Assembly (NCBI GenBank): GCA_017438525.1
Contig: JAFRVI010000023.1
Location: 2,761 to 66,760 of the forward strand
DNA: 64,000 bases
Source: Clostridia bacterium
GTDB taxonomy: Bacteria; Bacillota; Clostridia; Oscillospirales; RGIG8002
Direction of reading: 5' to 3'
Shown: positions 6,547 to 55,271 of the stretch, in pieces
Numbering within the stretch: the stretch's first letter is position 1
How the letters are laid out: each line of letters begins with the position of its first letter
Notes under the pieces: generated by a model
Seen by the model: only the letters and a program-made list of their open reading frames with translations
Told to the model about the DNA's origin: nothing
The model's database searches: none
Translations under genes and position numbers: made by a program

Positions 6547-6944
6547 GATCTTACACCTTCAGCGCCCCGATCAAGCTGCCGGGGCTGAATGAGTATACAT
6601 ACGCCTGCAGGTCGCACGCTCAGGTCGGCGCCGCGCTGAAGCGCGATACCGAGGACGCGCTGCGGTGGTTCATCCGCGCGCAGCTCGGCAAGCTCGTGAA
6701 GGATAAAAAGCTGCCGGCGCGTGCTCCGGTGAAGGTGTATTTCCGCTGGACTGAGGCAGGGAAGCGCCCGAGGGATAAGGACAACATCGCGTTCGCCAAA
6801 AAGTTCGTCCTTGACGCGCTCGTCGCCGAGAAGGTGCTGCTCTCGGACGCCTGGGACTACGTCGACAGCTTCGAAGACAGCTTCTTCCGCGGCCCGCGCT
6901 ACGGCGTGACCGTGGATATAACCGTGCTGGAAAAGGAGAGGTGA
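6543..6944 (+). CDS. rusA: RusA-like Holliday junction resolvase
   Basis: LPGLNEY...RPRDKDNIAFAKKFVLDALV...LSDAW parallels RusA RRRDLDNL.K...DAL...DD. Confidence 0.6.
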   Translation: MRSYTFSAPIKLPGLNEYTYACRSHAQVGAALKRDTEDALRWFIRAQLGKLVKDKKLPARAPVKVYFRWTEAGKRPRDKDNIAFAKKFVLDALVAEKVLLSDAWDYVDSFEDSFFRGPRYGVTVDITVLEKER

Positions 6945-24300: not shown

Positions 24301-27300
24301 AGAAAAGACGCGCAGCATATTGCGCACAAAGCGGGGGATAAAAAGAGAAGGGCGATATCAGAGATTAAACGACTTGTCGAGCACGCGAAGCTTGTTGCAA
24401 CGGAAAAAAGTGTTGACAATAACAAATTTAGGGACTTCAGATACTATGAGGCCTCAGTGCGCTATCACGATAATACTTTCCCTGTATACATAAACGTCGG
24501 AATAGCGAAAAATGACGGTTCTTATCACATATACGATATTACGCATAAATTAAGAGCTACCGCCCACCGACTTAACGGTGTGGGGCGCGTCACTCAGACT
24601 TACGCCCTGGAAGCAGTACCTCTTACACCTGATATTATACCCGACAACACCGAAAAAGTCAATACCGTTTCTGAAAAATCTGATAATCCTGCGAATACCG
24701 CTATGACAATGGTTGAAGCGCGGCGTATGATCGAGACAGCTTACCGCGTCGGCGAGATCAAGGAGTGGTATGCTGATGAGGGCACCAACCAGACCGTTGA
24801 CGAATGGCTGAAGAACGTCGGCAGCGATGATATCGCAATGATTATTGAGAACGACTTCGATCTGCAGCGTAAGTATATTAACAGCAACACGGCTATCCTT
24901 GATGATGAATACCAGATAGAAGATGTCATAGACGCTTATAAAGCCGGCACGCTTGTGGGAAAGGAAAAGAAAAAGGCACAGCGGCTCGACATCAAGAAAG
25001 AGACCGGTCTGAAGGACGATCGCTTCTACGCGCCGCGAGAGATCGAGAACGCGAAGGAAAGGTTCGAGCTCGCGCAGCAGCGTATAACGAATGCGAATAA
25101 ACAGCAGGTTATCCAGGCGCGCGCGGATATCGTGCTATTCGCGCATAACCGCAACGCCGCCGAGCTGCTCGGGATTTCGCAGGCGGAGCTGAATAAGAAG
25201 CTGCGCAGTTGGACGCGCTACTCCGCTTCCGCAAGAGAGATCAGTGAACGCATCAACGCCGGCGTGCCGCTCGAGAACAGATGGACCGGCATTGAGAACA
25301 GCTCTTTTGTCAATCAGGCGTCTATATCGCAGAAGGATATCGATATGCTCGTCAAGAGCGTTACCGGTGATCCGAACGGCGCGGAGCGCAAATACATCGC
25401 CCGCGTGATGCTCGCGCTCGATACGCATATCGACTACAAAGGACTCAACTTCATATTTGAGTCAAAGGCGGAGCTGAATAAAAAGCACGGCTTTTCCGGC
25501 AGGACGAACGGCGTTTATAACGGATATGACACGATAGCTTGTAAGTATATGGCGCCCAACACCGTCGCACACGAGATGGGGCACTATCTCGATACGCGCT
25601 TTGCGCGTGATCTTGTCGGAGGAAGAGAAGACTCGAGGCATTATCTCACGAGGGGCGTCAATAAGGATATAGTCCGTGAAAGATACGGCGAAGACGGGGT
25701 AAGGTTTGTCGATAACTTCAATGTGTTTATGGACGGGCTGACGGACGTCAACGACGCATACAGCAGTTATTCCAACGACCGCGCCGAGGTATTCGCCCGT
25801 TTCGTCGCGCGCTTTGTGGAGTGGACGGAGAATGTTGCTGCGGGATACCGTATGAGCAACTATGAGTATAACAGCTACGACGATCATTTCACCACGGCAC
25901 AATACGTAGAGTTCGCGCGTTTGCTGCAGGAGAAGTCGTTGCTTGACGGGATGAGGGCGAATGGGGCTGTTACCACGGCCGAAGGAGCGAACACTTCGGA
26001 GATTAAACAAAGTATATCCAAGATCGTTGACGTGGACGGAAAAGACTACGGAATAGGCGTATACCTCGATTCCATTCTACTCGAAGGTCTTACCGACGCC
26101 GAGCGCAGCGATATGGTCAAGGAATATGTGAAGACGGAACTTGCCGGAAGCCATCTCCTCGCCTACAACAGCAACGGTGCACCTGTTGATGTCGCCATCG
26201 CCGAATACGGAGAAAGATTCACAGACGAAAACGGCAAAAAGAAAAAGGTTCTTAAAGAGCTCTATGGTAAGAATAACAAGTTTAAAGCAAAACAAGAATC
26301 CGTTGTCCTCGCCGACGAGCTGCTTCTCACAGCGAAGCAGGGTGAACCGGAAAAGTCGAGGAAAGCGCACGACTGGCTTGATAATAACGGGCAAAATGAT
26401 TGGGATTACTGGACGACATACATACAGGATAAAAACAAAACCGTCTGGCTTGCGACACTTAATATCGCGAACGCAACAGACGGAAGAAAAATCCTTTATG
26501 ACATTAACCCAATAAAAATGGTGGCGGAGGGCCTGTCATGGCCCTCAACAACCACCAACAAGTATACTACCACACCTTCTGCGAAAAGTCAAGAGGAAAT
26601 TAAAAAATATTTTCACGACGATGAACCGGCTGCCGTCGCCGACGCATACGCGGACCTGTGGAAGCAGCTCGCCGAGGCGAACCGCAAGCTGGCGAACGAG
26701 ATGGGCGACCTCAACTTCTCGAACCGCGAGCTGCTCGCAAACGCTCTCGAAACCGTCACCAAGGACAGCGCGGAGGCGCAGTTTATCGAAAGATACCGCG
26801 ATGAGATAAAAACGCTCAACGAGACGGAAGCAGAACTCAAAGAGGTGCGCGCCGAGTTGCGCAAAAAGATCTTCAGCGGAACCCGCGACGATGCAAGGAT
26901 CGAAGAGCTCACTGCACAAAGGAAGCATCTCGAAAACAAGCTCAACTACTGGGATAAGAAACTGATGACTGCGATCGAGGCGAGCAAGCCCCTGCAGCGT
27001 GTCGTTGAGCGCGAACGCGCGAAAGCGTATAAACGCGCAAGGGAGCAGGAACGCGCGAAGGTGGACGCGCTCCGCGAAGGCAGAGAGCTCCGCGAGGCGC
27101 AGGATCGCCTCCTGAAGATGCTCCGCCGCATCAACAATAAGAAGCTGTCGACCCCGAACAAAGCATGGCTCGAACAGCACTTCGGCGACATCTACACGCT
27201 TTCAAAGACTCTGACGGGCAAGAAGCTCGCAGCAGCGGAGGATATCAAGAACAGGATCGCCGCACTCACGGACGAGAACAGCCCGGATTATGATCCGAAC

Positions 27301-30300
27301 TACGCTCCGTCGCCGCGTCTCCTCGCGAGGCTTCAGGAGATAACGGGAAAGAAGACGGATATCGCTTCGATGGAGCTTGACGAGGTATACGACCGCACAG
27401 CGCTGCTAATGGAGTTCGCGCAAACGATCGAGAACAGCAAAAAGCTCGCGGGCGTTATGGAAAAGCGCGAGATACACGATCTCGCTTACCATACCATAAC
27501 GGATATAGCGACCACGAAGGGGAACGAAAGCGATCCCGCGGAGGGCTTCAAGAGAATGCTGCGGCCTTTCGTCCGCGCGGGAGAAGCCGCCGCCGACTTT
27601 GTCAATACCGAGGTGCTGTCTCCGATCGCATCGATACAGCGCTACACGGGGTTCAACGATAACGATCCGCTCTATCAGCGCGCGGAGGAGCTCGCGAAAG
27701 CCGAGGGTGTATACGATAAGTACACGACCGACGCGAACGCCCTCTTCGACGAGCTGCTGAACGATAAGCAGTTCGTGAAGTTTTTCCGCGGCGACGCCGG
27801 CAAGCCCATCGTCTTCAAGGCGAGAGGAGTCGGGGGAGACGGTATGCCCGGCGGCGAGATCGAAGTGCAGATAACCCCGGCGCTCCGCACCTGGCTTTAT
27901 CTCAACAGCCTCAACGCGGATAACCTCAACCATATCAAGACCGGCGGCGCGATATTCCCTGATCTCAACCTCCTGAGAAAAGGCAAATACGCCGACGCGT
28001 TCAGCGAGAAGAACTCGAAGAGAGTCCTTCTCTCTCCGGAGGAGATAAAAAGGATCACCGCCGGCATGACCGCAAAGGAGCTGCAGTTCGCCCGCGCCTG
28101 GGCGAAGTATGAGTCCGAAATGGCACAGCCGGGGATAGCACAGGTCCACGAGGAGCAGTACGGAACTCCGCCGAAGATGGTTGACGAGGGCTATTTTATG
28201 ATACGTACCAAGATGCCGAGCAGCTCCGCCATCGACGGGCTTGAGCAGATGCAGATAGACGGCACGACCGATATCGGCAGTCCCGGATGGCTCAAGGAAC
28301 GCAAGGATTCCAAACTGCCGATATACGCCTACCCCGCGGATATGATGATCAAGAGAGCGATAGACGATCACGCGCGTTTCGTCGCTTACTCGATCCCCGT
28401 CAGCAACTTCAATAAGATATGGAACGCGAATATGTGGGGCAAGGACAGTATCTATAACCCGGTAACGCGAACGGACGAAACGATGTTCCGTCTCGGGACG
28501 AGCGTGAAGGATACGCTCAAGGCGAAGTGGGGGCAAAACTCCGTCGACGTCGTGCAGCAGATGCTTGACGAATACGTCGGCAAGCCGAGAGGAAAGAACA
28601 GCAAAGCGGAGCGCGCCCTCAATAAGATCCGCGGCAACTACGCACAGGCGAGGCTTGCCGCAGGGCTCGGAACGGCGCTGAAGCAGATGCCGTCCGGCAT
28701 TGCCGCGGCTCCCGTTATCGATTTCCGCTCGCTTGCAAAAGCCGCGAATCCGGGATACAGTATCGATACGTCCTTCATCGACGAATATACCGCATCCTAT
28801 GCGATCCGCAAGAAGGGTTATTCTTCCACGGAACTCGGGGATCTCGCCAAGCAGGGCAAAAAGCTCCCCAAATGGCTTATATGGTATCAGACCGCAGACC
28901 TCGTGACGACAGGCCCGCTTCTCAAGCGCGCGGCAGCGTTCTACGTCCGCCGTAACTTCAAAACGCTGGAGGTCGGGTCGGAAGCATACAAGCAGAAGGT
29001 CGCCGAGGTATACGATAAGATCATCAACGAGACGCAGCCGACCTATGACGTTATGTACCGCGCCAACGCTTTGCGCAATCCCAGCCCGATATGGCGCGCT
29101 CTGAATATGTTCAAGACGCAGCCGTATAAGAACTACACGATACTGTATACCGCGCTCGGCAATCTCCGGGCAAAGGGCAACGCTCTGAACGACGCGGAGC
29201 AGTTCCGCTATACGGACGAGCAAGGCAAGGCCGAATACGAGCAGGCAAGGAGCGAGTATACCGAGGCGAAGAAACGCGTCGTAAGAGCGTTCGTTTCGCA
29301 GATACTGTCGGGTTTGGCAATATCGGCGATCATGGTGCTCAACGATTTCCTCGTCACGGGCAACAAAAAGAAGTATCAGGATGAGGACGGCGACGTCACT
29401 CTCTTATCCTTCCTCAAGGGGCTCGGGCTCAATTTTGCCTCGACCGGCGCCGGAATGTTCCCGCTCGGCGGTGCGATACTTGAAACTGTGGAGAATACGG
29501 CGAACATTATTTCCGGGAATAAACTGTTCGACACTTATTCCTACGGATTGAAGGTGCCGGAGGTCGAAACGCTGAACAATGTGCAGAGCACTATTGATAA
29601 GCTGGTTGAAGCTCTGGCCGCCGTCGCAGACGCAGAGGACGCATCCGACTGGGAAAAGATAGGCAGAGCGTTATGGAAGACGGCTGTCGACACCGGAGAG
29701 ATCTTCGGTATACCGAGCGGCAATTTGAACAAAACGCTGAAAGCCGCCCTGCGGCAGGTGTTCCGCACTCAAGGCAAATACGTCGGAGAATACTTGACGC
29801 TGCGCGTCATGGGGACCGTGGAGGCTCACAAAAAAGCTCACTACGACAACCTCTATAAGGCTTACAAGTACGACCAGGAGCAATACAAGACTATATACGA
29901 AGATCTCATCGAAGATGGGTTGACCGAGTCGCAGATCAAGAACGCGATGGAACAGAGGATGAAGGCCGAACAGAAAGTCGACAGAGTTGACGAACTTGAC
30001 AGCCGATACCTTCCTCCGGCGCAGGATAAACAGTATGACAGTATCGTCGAGAGCGTCGAGAAGAGCAGTATATACTCCAAATTGAGCGCTACCGCAAAGA
30101 TAGAAATAAGCGATCTCGCCTACGACGTCGTTGCGTCGGATAAGTGGAGGGATTACGCCGTCACGAAGGAAAACAACCTCACCGCGACGCAATACGTTCT
30201 TTACAAACTCGCTCTCGATATCGTAGACGAGCCCAATAAAGACGGGAAATACGGTACGTACACAGATAAAGAAAAAGCGGCAGCTGTAAAAATAGCGAAG

Positions 30301-30309
30301 GGGAATTAA
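21370..30309 (+). CDS. Giant (2979-aa) polyvalent virion protein with an HExxH zincin motif, Gly/Ala-rich hydrophobic segments and a long coiled coil
   Basis: Uninterrupted 8.9-kb ORF with an SD. HEMGH at 25570-25584. Hydrophobic G/A-rich stretch at about 22530-22870. Two barnase/EndoU-like (PBECR-type) looking segments at about 24160-24580 and 26350-26520. E/R/K coiled coil at about 26650-27140. Confidence 0.6.
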   Translation: MATFDEIIRKSRENQSESSNSGGATFDEIIQKSRSRNGTGTAPVSSATPATPFMPLNVGEFYEKEVVPTVTALERIAREAEKAKAYSDTSDKLRGYTTLPEAPIGMPKIPNPADKLVAQAQEVANQREKEIRKALGGRNEFGSYVAGATDVDYTALAKKTNISEDELRNYAAENRKGAYRQAYEMLSRTDRADINSFIYDSKRFNLTEDEARGIFATYQNSDLKKMLTSSDGSNQDEIVKYIDGQIRDTGVGDRYGYGPKAIYRWTPDYALAVLKNTSAPAEGYTKENIMRYKARAIALTCIDPSSNKKWEKEAEDMYDVLFNNFFSADEDLLKAGDGWGRIAADIRTVTHPTAEAIMLGLSKGIGAESVATLINSDVKEQSDRAFAKAAALSPTAAEISSTAGSVALYTALAYVSGGAAGSIGGAAGSLLNIPAASSGLRLATSALSGAMALGGMSAVQNLGGYVTGDISLGEYGKRIGEAEVTGAASALASGLVSLRFDKALTGKLKSEIGTKAGVNYTTAVPDNAYDVLYGGNRMPLVASVKNPQTPFYIFTRNMASGLAGTGAYIAANAAVADEKQSEEEMARQLIFGFVTSLLHSFISAHSFSAGQREYARSIEGKIAEINKSIDSFKGAAANTEARGYDLSEAASKLVLEIERLRRGLVENFIASDPNTLNDLAVTDYYLVALQETLGEYVKIGTYGASEAYMTGLPEASAVAPITDLVAYSMESGINDGAIGATEAAEINSEYIPGAAAAASESVSALTTTEQHPAQNAAAQIAIDLSPAQAQAEGVLPSAEINARNAQITPPARNEQEAAARTESAKSWEIIGRDFGENGQKAFADVFDPELTKGELGTLAETFTAFYNAGKNNTGLDSISRELMQAALEVYGNDTDAAFEMERAAVLAGRADAEMKSSLVEDRAADDGVIDLSDDTELAKRIAGKSGSEKYNAIRDYILEELSGIDVVLSDGNNAIVDRKDAQHIAHKAGDKKRRAISEIKRLVEHAKLVATEKSVDNNKFRDFRYYEASVRYHDNTFPVYINVGIAKNDGSYHIYDITHKLRATAHRLNGVGRVTQTYALEAVPLTPDIIPDNTEKVNTVSEKSDNPANTAMTMVEARRMIETAYRVGEIKEWYADEGTNQTVDEWLKNVGSDDIAMIIENDFDLQRKYINSNTAILDDEYQIEDVIDAYKAGTLVGKEKKKAQRLDIKKETGLKDDRFYAPREIENAKERFELAQQRITNANKQQVIQARADIVLFAHNRNAAELLGISQAELNKKLRSWTRYSASAREISERINAGVPLENRWTGIENSSFVNQASISQKDIDMLVKSVTGDPNGAERKYIARVMLALDTHIDYKGLNFIFESKAELNKKHGFSGRTNGVYNGYDTIACKYMAPNTVAHEMGHYLDTRFARDLVGGREDSRHYLTRGVNKDIVRERYGEDGVRFVDNFNVFMDGLTDVNDAYSSYSNDRAEVFARFVARFVEWTENVAAGYRMSNYEYNSYDDHFTTAQYVEFARLLQEKSLLDGMRANGAVTTAEGANTSEIKQSISKIVDVDGKDYGIGVYLDSILLEGLTDAERSDMVKEYVKTELAGSHLLAYNSNGAPVDVAIAEYGERFTDENGKKKKVLKELYGKNNKFKAKQESVVLADELLLTAKQGEPEKSRKAHDWLDNNGQNDWDYWTTYIQDKNKTVWLATLNIANATDGRKILYDINPIKMVAEGLSWPSTTTNKYTTTPSAKSQEEIKKYFHDDEPAAVADAYADLWKQLAEANRKLANEMGDLNFSNRELLANALETVTKDSAEAQFIERYRDEIKTLNETEAELKEVRAELRKKIFSGTRDDARIEELTAQRKHLENKLNYWDKKLMTAIEASKPLQRVVERERAKAYKRAREQERAKVDALREGRELREAQDRLLKMLRRINNKKLSTPNKAWLEQHFGDIYTLSKTLTGKKLAAAEDIKNRIAALTDENSPDYDPNYAPSPRLLARLQEITGKKTDIASMELDEVYDRTALLMEFAQTIENSKKLAGVMEKREIHDLAYHTITDIATTKGNESDPAEGFKRMLRPFVRAGEAAADFVNTEVLSPIASIQRYTGFNDNDPLYQRAEELAKAEGVYDKYTTDANALFDELLNDKQFVKFFRGDAGKPIVFKARGVGGDGMPGGEIEVQITPALRTWLYLNSLNADNLNHIKTGGAIFPDLNLLRKGKYADAFSEKNSKRVLLSPEEIKRITAGMTAKELQFARAWAKYESEMAQPGIAQVHEEQYGTPPKMVDEGYFMIRTKMPSSSAIDGLEQMQIDGTTDIGSPGWLKERKDSKLPIYAYPADMMIKRAIDDHARFVAYSIPVSNFNKIWNANMWGKDSIYNPVTRTDETMFRLGTSVKDTLKAKWGQNSVDVVQQMLDEYVGKPRGKNSKAERALNKIRGNYAQARLAAGLGTALKQMPSGIAAAPVIDFRSLAKAANPGYSIDTSFIDEYTASYAIRKKGYSSTELGDLAKQGKKLPKWLIWYQTADLVTTGPLLKRAAAFYVRRNFKTLEVGSEAYKQKVAEVYDKIINETQPTYDVMYRANALRNPSPIWRALNMFKTQPYKNYTILYTALGNLRAKGNALNDAEQFRYTDEQGKAEYEQARSEYTEAKKRVVRAFVSQILSGLAISAIMVLNDFLVTGNKKKYQDEDGDVTLLSFLKGLGLNFASTGAGMFPLGGAILETVENTANIISGNKLFDTYSYGLKVPEVETLNNVQSTIDKLVEALAAVADAEDASDWEKIGRALWKTAVDTGEIFGIPSGNLNKTLKAALRQVFRTQGKYVGEYLTLRVMGTVEAHKKAHYDNLYKAYKYDQEQYKTIYEDLIEDGLTESQIKNAMEQRMKAEQKVDRVDELDSRYLPPAQDKQYDSIVESVEKSSIYSKLSATAKIEISDLAYDVVASDKWRDYAVTKENNLTATQYVLYKLALDIVDEPNKDGKYGTYTDKEKAAAVKIAKGN

Positions 30310-32341: not shown

Positions 32342-33193
32342 ATGGCGGAGTACGCAGTAAGCAAAATCGCATATGAAGATGACACCTTCAAGTTGAAGGA
32401 TTACCGTAACGCAGGCGTCTATTACGGCACCTGCGCGACAGCGGCGGCCACGCAGGCAAAGGCCGTTACCTGCGCGAATTTCACGCTCGCCACGGGAGCG
32501 ATCATCTTCGTCAAGTTCACATATGGTCAGTCATACAATGGGGCGCCGACGCTGAACGTCAATAGCGCCGGTGCGAAATCGGTCAAGTCAGTAGGAACGA
32601 CTAATTCTGTGCGCTATGCCTGGCTCGCCGGCGAAGTCGTTGGGTTCGTCTACGACGGCACCAATTTCATCATACTCGACGGCGGGATCGCATCGACAAC
32701 GTATTACGGTGTGACGAAGCTCTCTTCAGAGACTAACTCGACCTCTACAACGCTCGCTGCGACTCCTTCAGCGGTCAAAGCCGCCTATGATCTGGCGGCG
32801 ACTGCCAACAACAAAGTGCCGACGCCGACGGCTTCGGATGTCGGTAAGGTCCTGATGGTTAATGCCAACGGGCAGTATTATCTCGGTACGCCTTCTTCCG
32901 GAACGCAGCATACTGTCACTGTAGTGCTCGATGGTTTGTCAAGTCCGACGGCCTTGTATGTGCAATACGGTACTACCGTCATAGAAGATGACGCCGTGTT
33001 TTCCGTTTCTGACGGCGATACAATCCATTGCTACGCCTGGTTCTCTGCAGCCGACAATAAAGTTTATCTAAACGGGACGGTCGTCAGCAACGATAGCCCC
33101 GCAGAGTATGATTACATCGTTCACGGCGATGTCACGATAACCATAAGCGGAAGCCCGGGGGATTACGGTCACATCTTTATTGTAGAAGATTGA
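32342..33193 (+). CDS. Tail fibre / receptor-binding protein
   Basis: YGVTKLSSETNSTSTTLAATPSAVKAAYDLA matches the conserved fibre motif seen in lambda Stf (GIVQLSSATNSTSETLAATPKAVK). Confidence 0.7.
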   Translation: MAEYAVSKIAYEDDTFKLKDYRNAGVYYGTCATAAATQAKAVTCANFTLATGAIIFVKFTYGQSYNGAPTLNVNSAGAKSVKSVGTTNSVRYAWLAGEVVGFVYDGTNFIILDGGIASTTYYGVTKLSSETNSTSTTLAATPSAVKAAYDLAATANNKVPTPTASDVGKVLMVNANGQYYLGTPSSGTQHTVTVVLDGLSSPTALYVQYGTTVIEDDAVFSVSDGDTIHCYAWFSAADNKVYLNGTVVSNDSPAEYDYIVHGDVTITISGSPGDYGHIFIVED

Positions 33194-33202
33194 GGTGCAC
33201 AT

Positions 33203-33445
33203 ATGGAATTCTCAAAGAAGATATTGTACGTCGCGGCGTTTATTAACGTCGTTGTCATCGGGTTCACGCTCTGGTATGTTCAGGCCACGCAGGACGGTTC
33301 GCCGCTCGCTTATCTGATCCCCGCGGTCGCGGCCGAAACCGCGACCGGCACAGGATGGTATTATGCCAAGGCTAAAGCAGAGAACCGCATTAAACTTATG
33401 AAGGATAATAATATCAAGCCGAAACGGGAGGATTTCCACGAATGA
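33203..33445 (+). CDS. Holin-like small membrane protein (2 TM)
   Basis: 80 aa with two hydrophobic helices and a charged C-terminus. Lies upstream of the second holin and the endolysin. Confidence 0.5.
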   Translation: MEFSKKILYVAAFINVVVIGFTLWYVQATQDGSPLAYLIPAVAAETATGTGWYYAKAKAENRIKLMKDNNIKPKREDFHE

Positions 33446-33723
33446 GTAAGATAGACTGGAAACGCAAACTGTCCTCACGCAAGTTTTGGGCGGCGATCGC
33501 CGGCGCGGTCGCGAGCTTCGGTGCGGCGTTCGGAATAGCTGATAGTATCGTAACACAGGTCGTCGGCATTCTCGGCGGAATAGGCAGCATTTGCTTCTAC
33601 ATTTTCACAGAGGGCAAGTCTGACGTCGCCGGCATCGAGGCGAACAAGACGATAATCGTTGATGTACCGAAGGAGAGCGAGGTGGTCGGCGATGGCGAAG
33701 ATGCCGAGTCCATTCAGGGCTGA
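33442..33723 (+). CDS. Holin (LL-H/phi-LC3-like)
   Basis: SRKFWAAIAGAVASFGAAFG... is a typical N-region of this holin family. ATGA overlap start. Confidence 0.6.
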   Translation: MSKIDWKRKLSSRKFWAAIAGAVASFGAAFGIADSIVTQVVGILGGIGSICFYIFTEGKSDVAGIEANKTIIVDVPKESEVVGDGEDAESIQG

Positions 33724-34414
33724 AGTTCGCTGCACCGGCGGCTTCCCTTACTATGGCAGCCCGCCCGGCCCCTCGACCGCGAGCCACAGCGTCCATCACG
33801 GCGAGGATTACGTTCTGAAGAATAAGAGCATCGAAACGAATTGGTGCTTATTCGCTGTCGCCGAAGGCACGGTCATCCGCTCCGACAATTACGACGACTA
33901 CGGAAACTGCGTCGTAATTGCGCGCGATGACGGATATTGGATTTTGTACGCTCACCTTCAGATACGCGATGTCAAACTCGGCCAGCGTGTACTTGTCGGT
34001 CAGCGCGTCGGCATTGCAGGCAGCACGGGTAATTCGCAAGGACGACACCTGCACATTGAAGTCATCGATATGCGCGGTTTCCCTCCGAAGTGGTGCGGTT
34101 ACCAGGAGCATCTCAAGCATCTTGTCAAGCCGAGCGACTGCATCGACTTCGGAAATTACAATCCGCAGCCTGCACCCGGGCCGGATGAAGGAGGTTTCGA
34201 GGTGAAAACATGGACTAACGGCAGTACGAAGGAGCTGGTCTTTCAGACGACGTCGGACTGCAAGGCGCAGAAGAATCATATAGGATCGCTCGCTCCGAGA
34301 GAAGTGTGCGAGTGTTTCGGCGTCGTAGACGGTTGCTACCTCGTGGTCTATACCGTCAACGGCACTACTGCGAAGAAAACCGGCTTTGTTCGCTACGCTG
34401 GGGGTGTGAAGTGA
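33692..34414 (+). CDS. Endolysin: M23 (LytM-type) peptidase with a C-terminal SH3-like domain
   Basis: HHGEDY (HxxxD) and GRHLHIEV (HxH) zinc ligands. The start was chosen at the ATG after GAGGTGG. The ORF-track start 33659 is also possible. Confidence 0.8.
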   Translation: MAKMPSPFRAEVRCTGGFPYYGSPPGPSTASHSVHHGEDYVLKNKSIETNWCLFAVAEGTVIRSDNYDDYGNCVVIARDDGYWILYAHLQIRDVKLGQRVLVGQRVGIAGSTGNSQGRHLHIEVIDMRGFPPKWCGYQEHLKHLVKPSDCIDFGNYNPQPAPGPDEGGFEVKTWTNGSTKELVFQTTSDCKAQKNHIGSLAPREVCECFGVVDGCYLVVYTVNGTTAKKTGFVRYAGGVK

Positions 34415-34415
34415 A

Positions 34416-34724
34416 ATGAGTGACGCTATCATTGTCGCCATTATCGGCGCGATTTTCACGTTTGCCGGCGTCGTTCTGACGACGTGGGCGTCGCTTCGTA
34501 AGGCAAATAGGGAAGCTTTTGCACAGCGCGAAAAGGCCGCCGCCGAGAATAAGGCGCAGACGAATTTGATCTTATACCGCATCGATGAGCTCGAGAAAAA
34601 GCAAGATAAGCACAACGAGGTCATCGAGCGCACGTTCCGGATCGAAGAGCGGCTGGAGCTCCACGAAGAGAAAATTAAAGTCGCCAACCACAGGATTGAC
34701 GACCTTGAAAGGAAAACAGCATAA
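34416..34724 (+). CDS. BhlA/UviB-like holin-family protein (N-terminal TM plus coiled coil)
   Basis: AIIVAIIGAIFTFAGVVLTTW followed by a heptad-like Glu/Lys/Arg region. Lies in the lysis cassette. Confidence 0.5.
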   Translation: MSDAIIVAIIGAIFTFAGVVLTTWASLRKANREAFAQREKAAAENKAQTNLILYRIDELEKKQDKHNEVIERTFRIEERLELHEEKIKVANHRIDDLERKTA

Positions 34725-34873
34725 TGAAAACAGCACAAACGGAAACGGGTGTAGGTAGGGGCATGAAGTTTGAGAGGATCCGTCGTATCACGGGATACCT
34801 CGTTGGAGATCTTCAGCGATTCAACGACGGAAAATTCGCGGAACAAAAGGACAGAGTTAAGCACAGTGTTTGA
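34724..34873 (+). CDS. Stand-alone NrdD-type glycyl-radical peptide (49 aa), phage-encoded
   Basis: Not in the ORF track (<60 aa). The ATG overlaps the upstream TAA (TAATG). It encodes MKTAQTETGVGRGMKFERIRRITGYLVGDLQRFNDGKFAEQKDRVKHSV. RRITGYL plus N..K..E..DRVKH is the class III RNR C-terminal radical domain. Confidence 0.7.
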   Translation: MKTAQTETGVGRGMKFERIRRITGYLVGDLQRFNDGKFAEQKDRVKHSV

Positions 34874-34901
34874 GTCTGCAGAAAAAGCCGCATATTTTTT
34901 G

Positions 34902-34940
34902 AAAAAAAGAGAGAGCTCCGAGGAACTCTCTCTTTTTTTT
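34902..34940. terminator. Rho-independent terminator closing the late/lysis operon (A-run, stem, T-run)
   Basis: AAAAAAAGAGAGAGCTCC-GAG-GAACTCTCTCTTTTTTTT, with one mismatch in the stem. Confidence 0.75.
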
Positions 34941-35012
34941 ACCGGTCAATCCGGCACGTCAACCCGAACACCCCGCTGCAGAAAAACAACACGAGTTCGC
35001 ATTGACCGTATC

Positions 35013-35089
35013 TGGTCCGCCCGAAGGGATTCGAACCCCCGACCCCCAGAATCGGAATCTGATGCGCTATCCAACTGCGCCACGGGCGG
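35013..35089 (-). tRNA. tRNA-Arg (anticodon CCG), CCA encoded
   Basis: Manual cloverleaf: 7-bp acceptor, U8, A14, GG in the D-loop, anticodon loop TTCCGAT, T-loop TTCGAAT, 77 nt. The first pair is C1-G72. Confidence 0.8.
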
Positions 35090-35178
35090 ATTTTCAACTT
35101 TTTCAAAAAATTTTCTCCCGGAGTCGAGAGCGTTTTCAACAGGATTTCAACATGCGCGCCCTCGCCGGAATCTTAATC

Positions 35179-35207
35179 ATTATACCACATTTGACAAGCG
35201 TTGTAAA
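35179..35207 (-). promoter_or_regulatory. Promoter for tRNA-Arg (TTTACA-17-TATAAT with TG extension, minus strand)
   Basis: Plus strand shows ATTATA at 35179-35184 and TGTAAA at 35202-35207. Confidence 0.6.
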
Positions 35208-35292
35208 CTGTTTTTTGCCCTTCAGGTATACAATTTTTCAACATCACAAAGCTTTAACAATTAGCATATTTAGTTGAAAAACAGGGAGACGA

Positions 35293-35308
35293 ACACAAGA
35301 TATTGTGG
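35293..35308. promoter_or_regulatory. Candidate NrdR box
   Basis: ACACAAGATATTGTGG matches 14 of 16 positions of the NrdR palindrome consensus acaCwAtATaTwGtgt. It lies just upstream of the nrdD -35. No convincing second box was seen. Confidence 0.45.
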
Positions 35309-35326
35309 ATTTTTTGAAAAAAGTAC

Positions 35327-35355
35327 TTGACAAAGCCGGCGAAGGATGATAGTAT
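35327..35355 (+). promoter_or_regulatory. nrdD promoter (TTGACA-17-TAGTAT)
   Basis: Read directly. A roughly 100-nt leader follows. Confidence 0.55.
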
Positions 35356-35462
35356 ATAAAGCACAACGGCTCCGCGAGGGGAGATTTCTGCCCGCCGGCC
35401 GTTCCCAAAAAAATAGTGAGTCCAGGGTTTTATAAAATATTATTAATGAAAGGGTGCTGTTC

Positions 35463-37733
35463 ATGATTTGGAAAATCAGAAAGAGAAGCGGCGACATCGT
35501 TCCGTTCGACGCGCTTAAAATAAGAGAGGCCATCAAGAAGGCGGCGGACGCTTCCGACCCCAGCGGTCTGAGCGACGCGGAGCTCGATAACCTTACCGAA
35601 AAGGTCATACTCGCGATCCCGTCCTCGGGCATCCCCACCGTCGAAGAGGTGCAGGACCTCGTCGAAGAGAAGCTCATCGAGCACGGCTACTCCAAGATCG
35701 CGAAGGCGTACATACTCTACCGCGCCGAGCACGCGAAGATCCGCCAGACTGAGTCCGACCTTATGGATATATATAAGGAACTGACCTTCTCCTCCGCGGC
35801 TGACGCCGACATCAAGCGCGAGAACGCCAACATAGACGCCGACACCTCCATGGGCACGATGCTGAAATACGGCTCCGAGGGCGGCAAGTACTTCGTCGAC
35901 AACTACATCCTGCCCAAGGACATCGCGGCCGCGCACATCCACGGCGACATCCATATCCACGACAAGGATTTCTATATGCTGACAGAGACCTGCTGCCAGA
36001 TCAACCTGCTGGAGCTCTTCAAGGGCGGTTTCTCCACCGGCCACGGCTACCTGCGCGAGCCCAACGGCATCTCCAGCTACTCCGCGCTGGCGTGCATCGC
36101 CATCCAGGCGAACCAGAACGAAATGCACGGCGGCCAGAGCGTGCCGAACTTCGACTACTGCATGGCTCCCGGCGTCGCCAAGACCTTCAAAAAGGAATAC
36201 TTCAAGGCGCTGACCCAGTACTACTTCTACGCGGACGGCGACGATCTTCAGGACGCCGATAACTTCATCGCCGAGCTGAAAAAGGCCGTCGGCGACGACG
36301 TCAGAATGGCGAACACCGACGAGTTCGGCGCGAAGGTCGTCGACTACATCGTCTCCAAGGGTTTCAAGCGCGAGAACGCCGAGAAGGCGCACAGGAAGTC
36401 CGTCGAGACCGCGACGAGAATGACCGACAGAGCGACCTATCAGGCGATGGAGGCGTTCATCCACAACCTCAACACGATGAACTCCCGCGCCGGCGCTCAG
36501 GTCCCCTTCAGCTCCGTCAACTACGGCACCGACACCTCGCCGGAAGCGCGCATGGTTATTAAAAACCTGCTGCTCGCGACCGACGCCGGCCTCGGAAACG
36601 GCGAAACGCCTATCTTCCCGGTGCAGATATTCAAGGTAAAGGAAGGCGTCAGCTACAACAAGGAGGATCCCAACTACGACCTCTTCAAGCTCGCGATGAA
36701 GACCTCTGCCAAGCGTCTCTTCCCGAACTTCTCCTTCCTCGACGCGCCGTATAACCTCGCGTACTATAAGCCCGGCGATTTCAACTGCGAGGTCGCGTAC
36801 ATGGGCTGCCGCACGAGAGTTATCGCCAACGTCCACGATCCGAGCCGCCAGATCACCTGCGGCAGAGGCAACCTGAGCTTCACCTCAATCAACCTGCCGA
36901 GGATCGCGCTCGAATCCGACGGCAATATCGACAAGTTCTATTCGATACTCGACAGACGCATGGAGCTCGTCTTCCGTCAGTTGCTCCACCGCTTCGGCAT
37001 CCAGTGCACGAAGAAGGCGCGCAACTACCCCTTCCTCATGGGGCAGGGCGTGTGGATCGACTCTCAGAAGCTCGCCGACGACGACAGCGTCGCGGAGGTG
37101 CTGAAGCACGGCACGCTCAGCGTCGGCTTCATCGGCCTTGCCGAAACGCTCGTCGCGCTGACCGGCAAGCACCACGGCGAAAGCCCCGAGAGCCAGAAGC
37201 TGGGCCTTGAGATCATCGGCCATATGCGCAAGATGTGCGACGACAAGGCGAAGGCCGAGGGCCTGAACTTCACCCTGCTCGCCACTCCCGCCGAAGGCCT
37301 CAGCGGCCGCTTCGTCCGCATCGATCGCCAGAAGTTCGGCAAGCTGCCGGGCATCACCGACAGGGAGTATTACACCAACTCCTTCCACGTGCCGGTCTAC
37401 TACAACATCGGCGCATACGACAAAATTTCGCTCGAAGCCCCGTATCACGCGCTGACCAACGCCGGACACATCAGCTACGTCGAGCTTGACGGCGACACCT
37501 GCAAGAACCTCGACGCGTTCGAGTCCGTCATCCGCTGCATGAAGGAAAAGGGCGTCGGCTACGGCTCCGTCAACCACCCCGTCGACCGCGATCCCGTCTG
37601 CGGCTACACCGGCGTCATCGGCGACACCTGCCCGCGCTGCGGCAGACATGAAGGCGAAGAGGTCAGCTACGAAAAGCTCGCCGAGCTTCGCAAAAAGTAC
37701 CCCAACATGCCCAAGTTTTACGGAGTAAAATAA
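35463..37733 (+). CDS. nrdD: Anaerobic (class III) ribonucleoside-triphosphate reductase catalytic protein, lacking the glycyl-radical C-terminus
   Basis: ATP-cone N-terminus IRKRSGDIVPFDALKIREAI. Core motifs are present. Zn-ribbon CGYTGVIGDTCPRCG near the C-terminus. The ORF ends with TAA at 37731 and a second in-frame TAA at 37740. Alternative GTG start at 35454. Confidence 0.9.
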   Translation: MIWKIRKRSGDIVPFDALKIREAIKKAADASDPSGLSDAELDNLTEKVILAIPSSGIPTVEEVQDLVEEKLIEHGYSKIAKAYILYRAEHAKIRQTESDLMDIYKELTFSSAADADIKRENANIDADTSMGTMLKYGSEGGKYFVDNYILPKDIAAAHIHGDIHIHDKDFYMLTETCCQINLLELFKGGFSTGHGYLREPNGISSYSALACIAIQANQNEMHGGQSVPNFDYCMAPGVAKTFKKEYFKALTQYYFYADGDDLQDADNFIAELKKAVGDDVRMANTDEFGAKVVDYIVSKGFKRENAEKAHRKSVETATRMTDRATYQAMEAFIHNLNTMNSRAGAQVPFSSVNYGTDTSPEARMVIKNLLLATDAGLGNGETPIFPVQIFKVKEGVSYNKEDPNYDLFKLAMKTSAKRLFPNFSFLDAPYNLAYYKPGDFNCEVAYMGCRTRVIANVHDPSRQITCGRGNLSFTSINLPRIALESDGNIDKFYSILDRRMELVFRQLLHRFGIQCTKKARNYPFLMGQGVWIDSQKLADDDSVAEVLKHGTLSVGFIGLAETLVALTGKHHGESPESQKLGLEIIGHMRKMCDDKAKAEGLNFTLLATPAEGLSGRFVRIDRQKFGKLPGITDREYYTNSFHVPVYYNIGAYDKISLEAPYHALTNAGHISYVELDGDTCKNLDAFESVIRCMKEKGVGYGSVNHPVDRDPVCGYTGVIGDTCPRCGRHEGEEVSYEKLAELRKKYPNMPKFYGVK

Positions 37734-37769
37734 TTAACATAACCAAACTTTTCACAGGAGGGAAAGAAA

Positions 37770-37928
37770 ATGACCAAGAGCATAGTTACCACCGAGACCG
37801 GAATCGGCGAGGGCGTCGGCTTCGAGAGAATCCGCAGAATCACCGGTTACCTCGTAGGCACCACCGACCGCTTCAACAACGCCAAGCGCGCCGAGGAAAA
37901 AGACAGAGTCAAGCACAGTCTTGCGTAA
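37770..37928 (+). CDS. Stand-alone NrdD glycyl-radical subunit (52 aa), host copy
   Basis: Not in the ORF track. SD AGGAGGG 7 nt upstream. Encodes MTKSIVTTETGIGEGVGFERIRRITGYLVGTTDRFNNAKRAEEKDRVKHSLA. Same reading frame as nrdD but separated by two stop codons. Confidence 0.75.
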   Translation: MTKSIVTTETGIGEGVGFERIRRITGYLVGTTDRFNNAKRAEEKDRVKHSLA

Positions 37929-37942
37929 TTGAACGCAAACGC

Positions 37943-37980
37943 GGGTCCGGCGGGAAAGCTTCCGCCGGATCCGTTCTTTT
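37943..37980 (+). terminator. Rho-independent terminator of the nrdD operon
   Basis: GGGTCCGGCGG-loop-CCGCCGGATCC followed by GTTCTTTT. Confidence 0.7.
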
Positions 37981-37992
37981 CGGGAGGGGAGT

Positions 37993-38397
37993 ATGCCTGA
38001 TAAAGACAAGCGGGAAGAGGGGCGCGACGCCGCTCCCGCCGAAGCGCGGAAAACGAAGCTGCGCCTGAGGCCCGCCGAAGTGATTGCCTTCGCGCTTGCC
38101 GCGGTGTTCATCGCCGCCGCGGTCTTTCTTGCCGTACATAGATTTTCAAACGACGATCTGATATTCAAGCCGACGTCGTCAACCACCAAAACAGTCGAAA
38201 CCAAGTGGGTTGTCAACATCAATACCGCCTCCGCCGAGGAGCTTATGATGCTCGACGGGATAGGCGAGGCGCTCGCCGAGCGGATAATCGATTACCGCGA
38301 CGAGCACGGCGATTTCGAGACGGTATGGGACGTCGTGAACGTCAGCGGCATCTCCCGAAATTTGTTCAACAAGATCTACGAGCACATCACCGTGTGA
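37993..38397 (+). CDS. comEA: ComEA-family helix-hairpin-helix DNA-binding protein
   Basis: N-terminal TM helix, then NINTASAEELMMLDGIGEALAERIIDYRDEHGDF..VNVSGIS (HhH motifs). Confidence 0.85.
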   Translation: MPDKDKREEGRDAAPAEARKTKLRLRPAEVIAFALAAVFIAAAVFLAVHRFSNDDLIFKPTSSTTKTVETKWVVNINTASAEELMMLDGIGEALAERIIDYRDEHGDFETVWDVVNVSGISRNLFNKIYEHITV

Positions 38398-38425
38398 GCC
38401 GCAAAAGGCGGAAAAAACAGTCCGG

Positions 38426-38450
38426 AGGCCGCAGATGCGTTCTGCGGCCT
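38426..38450 (+). terminator. Hairpin terminator after comEA
   Basis: AGGCCGCAGA-TGCGT-TCTGCGGCCT. The T-run is weak. Confidence 0.5.
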
Positions 38451-38493
38451 TGAATTATATCCACAGGATTATAATATTTAACAAAAATAACTA

Positions 38494-38522
38494 TTTACAA
38501 AGCGACGCGAGAGGTGTAAAAT
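38494..38522 (+). promoter_or_regulatory. iorAB promoter (TTTACA-17-TAAAAT)
   Basis: Read directly in the AT-rich spacer upstream of iorA. Confidence 0.55.
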
Positions 38523-38557
38523 ACTTTTATTATACACTTCGTCAAGGGAAAGAAGGA

Positions 38558-40306
38558 ATGACGATGAAAAAAATCATGATCGGCAACGAAGCCGTTGCCA
38601 GAGGCCTCTACGAGGCCGGAGTAAAACTCGTATCCAGCTATCCGGGCACGCCGTCGACGGAAATAACCGAATTCGCGGCGAAGTTCCCGGAGGTTTACGC
38701 GGAGTGGGCGCCGAACGAAAAGGTCGCGCTCGAAACCGCCATAGGCGCCTGCATCGGCGGCGCGAGAGCGTTCACCGGCATGAAGCACGTCGGCCTGAAC
38801 GTCGCGGCCGACCCGCTTTTCACGGCGTCGTACACCGGCGTCAACGCCGGACTCGTCATCGGCGTCGCGGACGACCCGGGTATGCACTCCTCGCAGAACG
38901 AGCAGGACTCCCGCAACTACGCCATCGCCGCGAAGGTGCCGATGCTTGAGCCGTCCGACTCGGGCGAATGCCTCGCCTTCGTCAAGGAGGCGTACGAGCT
39001 CTCCGAGAAGTACGACACGCCCGTGATCCTGCGCCTCTGCACCCGAGTCGCGCATTCGCAGAGCGCGGTGGAGCTTTCCGACCGCGCCGAGCTGCCGCTT
39101 AAAGAATATGAGAAGAACGCCGCGAAGTTCGTCATGGTGCCCGCCAACGCAAAGGGAAGACACCCCTTCGTCGAGGAGCGCATGGCGAAGCTCGCGGAAG
39201 AGGCGAACTCCGCGTGGTTCAACCGCGCCGAATACCACGATACGAAGCTCGGCGTCATCACCGCCGGCGATTGCTACCAGTACGCGCGCGAAGCGCTCGG
39301 CGACAACGCCTCCTACCTGAAGCTCGGCATGGTCAACCCGCTGCCGGAGAAACTGATACGCGACTTCGCCGCAAAGGTCGACCGCCTCGTCGTGATCGAG
39401 GAGCTCGATCCCGTGATCGAGCGCTTCGTCAGAACGCTCGGCATCGAGGTCGAGGGCAAGAGCTTGTTCCCGACGTGCGGTGAGTTTTCGCAGGTGACAG
39501 TCAGAAACGCGCTCGGCGTCGCTTCCGAAAAGGGCTGCGAATGCGCCGAAAAAGCGCCGGTGCGTCCTCCGGTGATGTGCCCCGGATGCCCGCACAGAGG
39601 CCTTTTCTACGTGCTGAAAAAGCTCGGTGTCTACGTCAGCGGCGATATCGGCTGCTACACGCTCGGCGCGGGCGCGCCGCTTAACGCCATCGACACGACC
39701 GTCTGCATGGGCGCGAGCGTCTCGGCGCTGCACGGCTACAACAAGGCGAGGGGAGCGGAGAGCGCGAAGAAGAGCGTCGCGGTCATCGGCGACAGCACCT
39801 TCATGCACTCCGGCATCACCGGCCTTGTCAATATCGCTTATAATATGGGCAATTCCAACGTGATACTGCTCGATAACTCCATCACCGGCATGACCGGCCA
39901 CCAGCAGAACCCGACCACCGGGCAGACGCTGAAGGGTGACATCGTCGCCGCCGTGGACGTCCCCGCGCTCGTGAAGGCGATCGGCATCAAGCGCGTCGTC
40001 ACCGTAGATCCCTACGACGTGGACGAAACGGAACGCGTCATCCGCGAGGAGCTCGCGGCGGACGAGCCCAGCTTCATCATCAGCAAGCGCCCCTGCGCGC
40101 TGCTCAAATACGTCAAGTTCCCGAACATCTGCTCCGTAGACCGCGAGAAGTGCAAAAGCTGCAAGGCGTGCATGCGCATCGGCTGTCCGGCGATAAGCAT
40201 TATCGACGGCAAGGCGCAGATCGACCGCGAGCTCTGCGTCGGCTGCGGCGTCTGCGAAAAACTCTGCAAGTTCGGAGCCATATCGACTTCTGCGAGGGAG
40301 GGCTGA
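38558..40306 (+). CDS. iorA: Indolepyruvate:ferredoxin oxidoreductase alpha subunit
   Basis: N-terminus KIMIGNEAVARGLYEAGV..SYPGTPSTEI, a TPP-binding region, and a C-terminal 2x[4Fe-4S] motif CKSCKAC...CVGCGVCEKLC. The start was set at the internal ATG after GAAGGA. Confidence 0.9.
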   Translation: MTMKKIMIGNEAVARGLYEAGVKLVSSYPGTPSTEITEFAAKFPEVYAEWAPNEKVALETAIGACIGGARAFTGMKHVGLNVAADPLFTASYTGVNAGLVIGVADDPGMHSSQNEQDSRNYAIAAKVPMLEPSDSGECLAFVKEAYELSEKYDTPVILRLCTRVAHSQSAVELSDRAELPLKEYEKNAAKFVMVPANAKGRHPFVEERMAKLAEEANSAWFNRAEYHDTKLGVITAGDCYQYAREALGDNASYLKLGMVNPLPEKLIRDFAAKVDRLVVIEELDPVIERFVRTLGIEVEGKSLFPTCGEFSQVTVRNALGVASEKGCECAEKAPVRPPVMCPGCPHRGLFYVLKKLGVYVSGDIGCYTLGAGAPLNAIDTTVCMGASVSALHGYNKARGAESAKKSVAVIGDSTFMHSGITGLVNIAYNMGNSNVILLDNSITGMTGHQQNPTTGQTLKGDIVAAVDVPALVKAIGIKRVVTVDPYDVDETERVIREELAADEPSFIISKRPCALLKYVKFPNICSVDREKCKSCKACMRIGCPAISIIDGKAQIDRELCVGCGVCEKLCKFGAISTSAREG

Positions 40307-54731: not shown

Positions 54732-54807
54732 GGGAGCATAGCTCAGCTGGGAGAGCACTTGCCTTACAAGCAAGGGGTCACAGGTTCGAGCCCTGTTGTT
54801 CCCACCA
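54732..54807 (+). tRNA. tRNA-Val (TAC)
   Basis: Manual cloverleaf. Anticodon loop CTTACAA, T-loop TTCGAGC, CCA encoded. Confidence 0.85.
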
Positions 54808-54870
54808 GAAATTATGTTGTTGAACCGTTCCGCGATCGGCGTGATCGTAGCCGTTGACAACAGGTAATAC

Positions 54871-54947
54871 GGCGCTGTAGTTCAGCTGGTTAGAACGCTA
54901 GCCTGTCACGCTAGAGGTCACGGGTTCGAGTCCCGTCAGCGTCGCCA
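54871..54947 (+). tRNA. tRNA-Asp (GTC)
   Basis: Manual cloverleaf. Anticodon loop CTGTCAC, CCA encoded. Confidence 0.85.
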
Positions 54948-54952
54948 CATTT

Positions 54953-55028
<76 letters not shown>

Positions 55029-55064
55029 CCTATACCGATTCATTTCGTGGACATATTCATATCT

Positions 55065-55140
55065 GCGGATTTAGCTCATCCGGTAGAGCGCCACCTTGCC
55101 AAGGTGGAGGTAGCGAGTTCGAGTCTCGTAATCCGCTCCA
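55065..55140 (+). tRNA. tRNA-Gly (GCC)
   Basis: Manual cloverleaf. Anticodon loop TTGCCAA, CCA encoded. Confidence 0.85.
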
Positions 55141-55143
55141 AGG

Positions 55144-55178
55144 ACGCTTAAATATTTCGGTATTTAAGCGTTTTGTTT
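55144..55178 (+). terminator. Terminator after tRNA-Gly
   Basis: ACGCTTAAATA-N6-TATTTAAGCGT followed by TTTTGTTT. Confidence 0.75.
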
Positions 55179-55197
55179 CGGGAGATTCCCGAGACGC

Positions 55198-55271
55198 GGC
55201 ACCATAGCCAAGTGGTAAGGCAGAGGCCTGCAAAGCCTTTACCCCCAGTTCGAGTCTGGGTGGTGCCTCCA
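55198..55271 (+). tRNA. tRNA-Cys (GCA)
   Basis: Manual cloverleaf. Anticodon loop CTGCAAA, CCA encoded, 74 nt. Confidence 0.8.

Follow-up and report, generated by a model that had tools for sequence, protein, structure and literature searches.

A prophage lysis operon encodes a free-standing glycyl-radical peptide of the anaerobic ribonucleotide reductase type

This report concerns a very short gene at the end of the lysis operon of a prophage, and the anaerobic (class III) ribonucleotide reductase (RNR), NrdD, of the bacterium that carries the prophage. Both lie in a 64-kb stretch of DNA from a Clostridia bacterium (contig JAFRVI010000023.1; 64,000 nucleotides), the whole of which is called the window below. 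The gene encodes a free-standing peptide of 49 amino acids (aa) that corresponds to the glycine-radical loop of NrdD. The closest described systems belong to pyruvate formate-lyase (PFL). A review of June 2026 (PMC13450708) recognizes spare-part proteins for formate lyases only and leaves the question open for the other enzymes of the class. The spare part of E. coli, GrcA (also called YfiD), is a small free-standing loop of the PFL type that is activated by the PFL activase and replaces the loop of the enzyme (PMC13450708). The phage peptide resembles GrcA in being small, free-standing and essentially one glycine-radical loop. The differences are considerable, however. GrcA has 127 residues and is PFL-related (PF01228), whereas the phage peptide is NrdD-related (PF13597). 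GrcA rescues a full-length enzyme that has been cut by oxygen, whereas the host enzyme in the window never had a working loop. The peptide class described here is an obligate subunit, and the phage copy would be an alternative one. By analogy, the phage peptide may thus be called GrcA-like in its working, but it is not a member of the GrcA family.

A phage-encoded free-standing glycyl radical protein is known from T4, namely Y06I (Wagner et al. 2001, as cited in PMC13450708). Y06I is a GrcA homologue that acts on PFL and is unrelated to ribonucleotide reductase. In addition, T4 has complete nrdD and nrdG genes, whereas the prophage region has only the 49-aa piece, with no NrdG-like gene in the window. 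Genes for class III reductases are frequent in phages, and six interrupted phage nrdD genes have been catalogued, with introns or inteins (PMC3653736). These auxiliary genes encode complete enzymes, whole or interrupted by selfish elements, whereas 75 of the best 80 viral loci in our search of IMG/VR hold the loop only.

Separation of a reductase module into its own gene is also seen in NrdJa and NrdJb of Pseudomonas aeruginosa and of the Thermus phage phiYS40, where a C-terminal module is encoded by a separate adjacent gene. That system is of another class, with another cofactor (class II), the separated part is a cysteine-rich reducing or zinc-finger module and not a radical carrier, and the small piece alone is not reported on mobile elements. 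Finally, activated NrdD of E. coli and of T4 is cut at the radical glycine by O2. The split core described below resembles the large fragment so formed, and the peptide resembles the lost piece, but the genomic split is placed about 8 residues before the glycine, and a conserved private tail ends the core. We know of no report in which a peptide rescues cleaved NrdD. The preliminary description of the locus was aware of no NrdD equivalent of GrcA, and this stands: full-text literature searches turned up neither a split NrdD whose glycine peptide is encoded apart nor a spare part for NrdD, and the review cited above limits spare parts to formate lyases.

The phage peptide and its place in the prophage

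Translation of the peptide gene gives MKTAQTETGVGRGMKFERIRRITGYLVGDLQRFNDGKFAEQKDRVKHSV (34724–34873, forward strand; Table 1). One base is common to its start codon and the stop codon of the preceding 102-aa gene (TAATG, 34722–34726), and the sequence AGGA lies 10 nucleotides 5′ of the ATG. The terminator that follows, at about 34900–34941, folds with z = −3.1, and none of 200 shuffled sequences folds as well. The open reading frame (ORF), the overlap and the strong terminator had all been noted in the preliminary description, and translation and folding agree with it on each.

The peptide matches the final part of the PF13597 NRDD profile (positions 532–562 of 562), scoring 29.7 bits against a gathering score of 26.2 (E = 3.4e-7). 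It also matches positions 710–744 of the 746 of NCBIfam PRK07111 (E = 2.2e-11), although a 49-mer does not reach the whole-protein cut-offs of families of the PRK07111 or TIGR02487 type. The likeness covers the last ~35 residues of NrdD, the loop and helix making up ~34 of the 49 aa. The PFL-type profile PF01228 (Gly_radical) matches neither the phage peptide nor that of the host at E ≤ 0.1. The profile comparison that had been proposed as a check on the peptide’s identity thus comes out for NrdD and not for PFL. When aligned on the NrdD of Prevotella copri, the closest solved structure, the peptide occupies chain positions 707–738 (residues ~703–734, the chain numbering being the paper’s residue numbers plus 4). 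Its Gly24, Tyr25 and Arg32 fall on Gly711, Tyr712 and Arg719 of P. copri NrdD, and the R-x-x-G-Y context, the conserved arginine and the C-terminal helix are all present (RRITG24Y25 ... R32FN..K..E..DRVKH). The P. copri structure paper reports that Tyr712 and Arg719 contact the substrate network and the flap, and it describes great mobility of the glycine-radical domain, which leaves the barrel. Such mobility is compatible, by analogy, with a detachable piece. The earlier assignment to a free-standing class III glycyl-radical peptide is therefore upheld by the two profiles and by the P. copri alignment alike.

The phage peptide is not the C-terminus of a full-length NrdD, as it has its own start codon, lies in a prophage and is 590 base pairs (bp) from the nearest nrdD start. 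It is detached from any core and so is not part of a split operon of the kind described in the next section. It is a mobile paralogue of the small subunit of a split NrdD. Global alignment of the phage and host peptides gives 32 identical residues, 64% nucleotide identity and a proportion of synonymous differences (pS) of 0.77. The two are thus paralogues of long standing and did not arise as an integration repeat. The diverged paralogy proposed earlier, with the same 32 identities, is thereby retained. Duplication of the attachment site as the origin of the phage copy is ruled out by the 64% nucleotide identity and the saturated synonymous sites.

Upstream of the holin-like gene lies a gene for a tail-fibre-repeat protein, and in related phages the holin-like gene has the same position. 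The M23 peptidase corresponds to a called gene of 240 aa on contigs identical to the window. The XhlA match recurs in a related phage (contig L095), and an identical peptide gene was read on 14 contigs. The prophage has its integration target in a tRNA-Arg(CCG) gene, the 3′ end of which faces the phage. Five prophage-free contigs (L179–L181, L183 and L185), from related strains with an identical host peptide, align to the window only from 35009–35013 rightwards; to the left of the junction they carry a gene for a Mn-catalase-like protein and one for an ABC ATPase. Another contig, L002, is the same as the window between 24724 and 35018; past that point it has unrelated DNA, which encodes a helix-turn-helix protein. 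The empty sites and the L002 junction together place the end of the element at the tRNA 3′ end, ~140 bp past the peptide gene and ~450 bp upstream of the host nrdD; the left end of the prophage lies outside the window. The gene matches, the empty sites and the conserved module bear out the earlier placement of the peptide gene as the last gene of a prophage lysis cassette.

Table 1. Features of the prophage end and of the host nrdD locus (window positions)
Feature	Position	Strand	Evidence or remark
Holin-like gene, start of lysis cassette	33442..33723	+	phrog_297 holin, E = 1.7e-6
M23 peptidase, likely endolysin	33692..34414	+	PF01551, E = 5e-20; endolysin and metallo-endopeptidase PHROGs
XhlA-like membrane and coiled-coil lysis-associated gene, 102 aa	34416..34724	+	PF10779 weak, E = 5.5e-4; phrog_1863, E = 5e-14
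Phage-encoded free-standing NrdD glycyl-radical peptide	34724..34873	+	49 aa; Gly24 = predicted radical site
Intrinsic terminator closing late/lysis operon	34900..34941	+	hairpin −22.4 kcal/mol, U8 tail, A-run 5′
Right prophage/host junction at tRNA 3′ end	35009..35018		empty-site strains; divergence of contig L002
tRNA-Arg(CCG), integration target	35013..35089	-	ARAGORN; Rfam tRNA, 60.7 bits
Possible NrdR-box-like site and promoter-like site upstream of host nrdD	35293..35355	+	weak evidence
Host NrdD core, 756 aa: ATP-cone, barrel, zinc ribbon, no glycine loop	35463..37733	+	PF03477 and PF13597
Degenerate glycine-loop copy ending core (VSYEKLAELRKKYPNMPKFYGVK)	37662..37730	+	Lys for radical Gly
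Host radical peptide, 52 aa, separate gene	37770..37928	+	family matches; GenBank MBQ6552442.1
Terminator after host core-peptide pair	37941..37974	+	15-pair stem, then T-run

Split NrdD in the host and free-standing peptides elsewhere

The host core matches positions 1–531 of the 562 of PF13597 and aligns on P. copri NrdD at chain positions 5–708. It matches PRK07111 only at positions 1–714 of 746, that is, without the glycine loop. Alignment with fused homologues shows that the zinc-ribbon cysteines are kept (...CPRCGRHEGEE) and are followed by VSYEKLAELRKKYPNMPKFYGVK, which takes the place and register of FERIRRITGYLVG... in the fused homologues and has a lysine where the radical glycine is expected. 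The host peptide gene begins 36 nucleotides after the core stop codon and has its own ribosome-binding site, AGGAGGG. As this core is the only NrdD in the window, no full-length parent enzyme is seen there. The host NrdD is truly split, and its core needs a separate loop. Since this core lacks a glycine loop, the term alternative small subunit suits the phage peptide better in this host than the term repair part for a full-length enzyme.

Such a split is not peculiar to this bacterium. The preliminary description took the separate peptide of the host as given, which stands, but missed that split NrdD is common in bacteria. When contigs representing one genome per species were scanned, at least 553 stretches were found to encode relatives of the peptide, and the arrangement was determined for the best 80 loci (L099–L178). 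In 56 of them a core ORF is directly followed by a short peptide ORF; 13 have a fused full-length gene of 770–819 codons, and in 11 a short peptide ORF has no core alongside. The split loci come from Oscillospiraceae, Acutalibacteraceae, uncultured Bacilli, Mailhella, Treponemataceae, Peptococcaceae, Mogibacterium and others. Most of them have an NrdG-like gene (motif GCPHHCxGCHNP) 3′ of the peptide, the usual order being core, peptide, nrdG.

The split cores end in conserved tails that are specific to each lineage and represent decayed copies of the loop, in register with the real one. The tail motif is of the ELRKKYP type in the clade of the window host, and other lineages still have the G-Y pair (for example, ...VLNKLKGYSKD...). 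Because the tails are decayed loop copies, the sequences point to an origin of the split by tandem duplication of the 3′ end of the gene. Conservation of the core tail suggests that it has a role of its own. Split and fused cores are interleaved on a neighbour-joining tree of the cores.

Free-standing copies are numerous on mobile elements. A search of metagenome proteins gave 124 matches, and all of the 120 that were listed and read (P0001–P0120) are 42–86 aa long and share FERIRRITGY...RFN..K..E..DRVKH. Relatives of the peptide are encoded by 440 stretches of IMG/VR. Among the best 80 of these loci, from which the locus types were taken, the 75 loop-only loci mentioned above have a short ORF that stands alone, any NrdD core being absent within 6 kb; a core lies nearby in three, the gene is fused in one, and one could not be assigned. 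The closest relatives are found in complete phage genomes, where tail genes, holin, M23 peptidase, XhlA-like gene and peptide follow one another and are succeeded, on the other side, by an integrase, an S24 repressor and a Cro-like gene. A similar module of lysis genes and peptide stands beside different host genes on contig L094. Elsewhere the neighbours vary widely and include holins or endolysins, DNA methylases, tail genes, a DnaE polymerase and, on two contigs, an NrdG-like gene. On the latter two, L026 (262–970) and L027 (5469–6153), the NrdG-like gene, of the radical S-adenosylmethionine type, is directly upstream of the free-standing peptide, with no core in the flanks. On L064 (2275–8365) the order is DnaE, peptide, core, the reverse of the usual order of core and peptide. 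Of three abundant metagenome variants, one is flanked by the tail tube and tail chaperone genes of a P2-like phage, another belongs to a large phage-like region, and the third is carried by a plasmid-like element beside ArdC, ParA, ParB and SSB genes. The survey of phages suggested earlier, for short ORFs next to lysis genes, did find such genes, along with many copies beside other genes; membership in a very large family of mobile-element genes had not been recognized.

No Pfam, NCBIfam or PHROG family among the matches to those libraries is dedicated to the short peptide, and its genes are labelled ‘hypothetical’ or named after the full-length enzyme. Among the GenBank phage records, no cultured phage could be confirmed to have a free-standing copy, the unannotated faecal-metagenome matches there not having been checked for free-standing status. 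The cultured Eggerthella phage EL753P1 (L011, 2689–6150) has an nrdD core with an intein-like insertion and a split-type tail, a 102-aa ORF and then the peptide. Its peptide gene is frameshifted exactly at RRI|TGY, and the second half is unannotated; the frameshift could be a sequencing error, a pseudogene or a case of programmed frameshifting. A subfamily of ~85 aa has a conserved N-terminal extension of ~50 residues before PFERIRRITGY; this subfamily and other examples of extended loops are represented by the metagenome proteins P0096, P0102, P0106–P0110 and P0113–P0118, by loci L046, L061, L086, L159 and L173, and by L035/L037. At two viral loci the loop is followed by a C-terminal extension of ~170 residues.

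Selection was assessed on six copies, namely the phage and host genes of the window and four phage relatives. Among them, pS ranges from 0.58 to 1.07, that is, synonymous sites are saturated, while the proportion of nonsynonymous differences (pN) is only 0.12–0.28. This contrast argues that the phage copies are under purifying selection. Gly24, Tyr25 and Arg32 are kept in the phage copies. Profiles of conserved positions are alike in 64 viral free-standing peptides, 54 host split peptides and 13 fused loops, and no systematic difference between viral and host peptides was found at the conserved positions of these sets. Outside the core motif, some features are shared locally between phages and hosts. 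The N-terminal motif T-E-T-G-x-G is found only in the phage clade of the window and in the peptide cluster of the window host, and a C-terminal HCSMxDW is common to the P2-like phage peptide and to the host peptide of the split NrdD of Mailhella. On this sequence evidence, the phage peptide appears to be tailored to its host by lineage-specific mimicry.

Some further observations bear on the relation between phage and host forms. One metagenome protein, P0007, from a contig of 559 bp, is identical to the phage peptide over its first 28 residues and has a host-like C-terminal part (TTDRFNNAKRAEE...), a chimera that suggests recombination between phage and host copies. The VGDLxRFN type is seen in 106 of the 120 listed metagenome proteins, and VGT.DRFN in 96% of the chromosomal peptides beside a core. 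All six GDL-type genes whose context was inspected are on mobile elements. The GDL type may be a signature of mobile elements or a bias of the search ranking.

Proposed role of the phage peptide

We propose that the phage peptide is a working alternative to the small radical subunit of the host, activated by the host’s NrdG and docking into the host’s core. From the comparisons above, we put the probability of this proposal at about 0.6. Once translated, the peptide would lose a hydrogen from Gly24 to the host NrdG, encoded outside the window; it would then enter the barrel of the core and pass the radical on to the active-site cysteine. Of the two pieces, the one that bears the radical would be destroyed by oxygen, and a carrier of 50 residues would be a consumable in a two-piece enzyme. 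For that reason, a mobile element that supplies extra copies would keep the reductase armed, maintaining or raising the number of armed molecules. The phage would make the peptide in quantity together with its late proteins. The expected benefit is a supply of deoxynucleoside triphosphates (dNTPs) during phage DNA synthesis and packaging and, possibly, recovery of the lysogen after exposure to oxygen. The idea that the peptide keeps the host NrdD armed appears to be strengthened by the purifying selection, by the retained residues and by the pairing of the peptide with NrdG or core on some elements.

Several points weigh against the proposal. The window has no NrdG, as no ORF bearing CxxxCxxC could be NrdG, and the activase gene must therefore lie in another part of the host genome. 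For a boost of dNTP synthesis, expression with the last gene of a late lysis operon would be oddly timed. The invariance of ERIRRITG arises partly by construction, since that stretch was a search pattern. Lastly, the phage clade has VGDLxRFN where host-type peptides have VGT.DRFN, with Phe23 and Gln26 for Arg and Glu, and these substitutions could change affinity or function.

It is conceivable that the peptide acts as a blocker, occupying the host core or tying up NrdG without catalysis and so throttling dNTP synthesis of the host, which might serve to halt the host’s replication or to keep rival phages out. The substitutions just after the radical glycine (GDLxR vs GT.DR) would suit a blocker, as would expression with the late genes, when new dNTPs matter less, and the lack of an NrdG or core of their own on most elements that carry the peptide. 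But a blocker could do without the radical glycine and the contact residues, or even gain from losing them, and yet every one of them is strictly conserved; moreover, phages without a reductase of their own would starve if the host enzyme were blocked. Contigs L026 and L027, where the peptide is paired with an NrdG-like gene, and L064, where it is paired with a core, likewise point to an active enzyme rather than to blocking. We therefore regard a blocking role as quite improbable. Somewhat less improbable, though still unlikely in our view, is that the peptide is active but pays off in the lysogen, as a spare radical piece for the anaerobic host after pulses of oxygen. The gene is flanked by the lysis genes on one side and by the attachment site or integrase on the other and has a terminator of its own, a placement typical of genes added to prophages for lysogenic conversion (morons), and free-standing copies are also found on the plasmid-like element beside ParAB, SSB and ArdC genes. 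There is also a promoter-like site inside the upstream gene (34696–34725), but transcription from it would begin 3′ of the peptide ATG. Furthermore, the start codon overlaps a late gene, and in other phages the peptide gene is embedded in tail operons.

Least credible of all is a functionless fragment of the host, picked up by faulty excision beside nrdD and simply carried along. The prophage does lie so close to the host nrdD, ~450 bp, that host DNA is within reach, and the N-terminus of the peptide does resemble the peptide of the window host. Against such a scar, the protein is conserved despite saturated synonymous sites, and its start, length and stop are conserved across the phage clade. 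The same phage occurs with a different right junction (L002), a related module stands beside other host genes (L094), and unrelated elements carry their own versions. The selection data and the presence in unrelated elements largely reject this origin.

Beyond the single locus, the proposal that the phage peptide is a working small subunit extends to a more general picture, for which we see roughly even odds: in many anaerobes class III RNR would be a two-piece enzyme with a replaceable ‘radical cartridge’, and phages, prophages and plasmid-like elements would repeatedly have captured the cartridge gene to re-arm or take over the reductase. If true, PFL would no longer be the sole glycyl radical enzyme with a spare-part, or exchangeable-radical, system, and the peptide gene would be a new, very small and very common auxiliary gene of mobile elements of the gut and rumen. 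The question raised in the review about other spare parts becomes directly testable for the anaerobic RNR, for which a core, two peptides and natural variants are at hand. Enzymologists would gain, in a detachable radical peptide, a convenient handle on NrdG activation and radical transfer. For phage biology, the case exemplifies an auxiliary gene of 40–60 residues that ordinary gene callers and family libraries miss. The natural splitting, at the radical site, of an enzyme essential for DNA synthesis in many anaerobes of the gut and rumen changes the annotation of nrdD.

Surroundings of the locus

Upstream of the host nrdD, an NrdR-box-like palindrome, ACACAAGATATTGTGG, lies at 35293–35308; it is the sole match in the window, where 0.62 would be expected by chance, so that it does not differ statistically from a chance match, and the window scan gave no such match near the phage peptide gene. 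Just 3′ of the palindrome is a promoter-like site (35327–35355, TTGACA-17-TAGTAT). An Rfam scan of 33000–38600 yielded nothing besides the tRNA of Table 1. A gene for a Mn-catalase- or rubrerythrin-like protein is found shortly upstream of nrdD in all five prophage-free contigs, with one to three genes between in some.

On the 3′ side of the host core-peptide pair, the window has no nrdG; a ComEA-like gene is found there instead. Contigs L179, L180, L181, L183 and L184 have a metallophosphatase/dockerin gene of ~875 aa between the ComEA-like gene and the indolepyruvate oxidoreductase genes. This gene is absent from the window (compare 38400–38480) and from the prophage-free contig L185.

Within the tail region of the prophage, positions 21370–30309 form a single ORF of 2979 aa, for which a weak LPD3 domain match, on identical contigs, is the only one. 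The related phages L095–L098 have an RVT_1 reverse-transcriptase gene between the tail genes and the holin (5774–6811; 172–1209 in L098). It is likely part of a diversity-generating retroelement and is absent from the same place in the phage of the window. Farther to the right, a low-GC stretch of the window (54732–55271) contains a cluster of five tRNA genes (Val, Asp, Phe, Gly and Cys).

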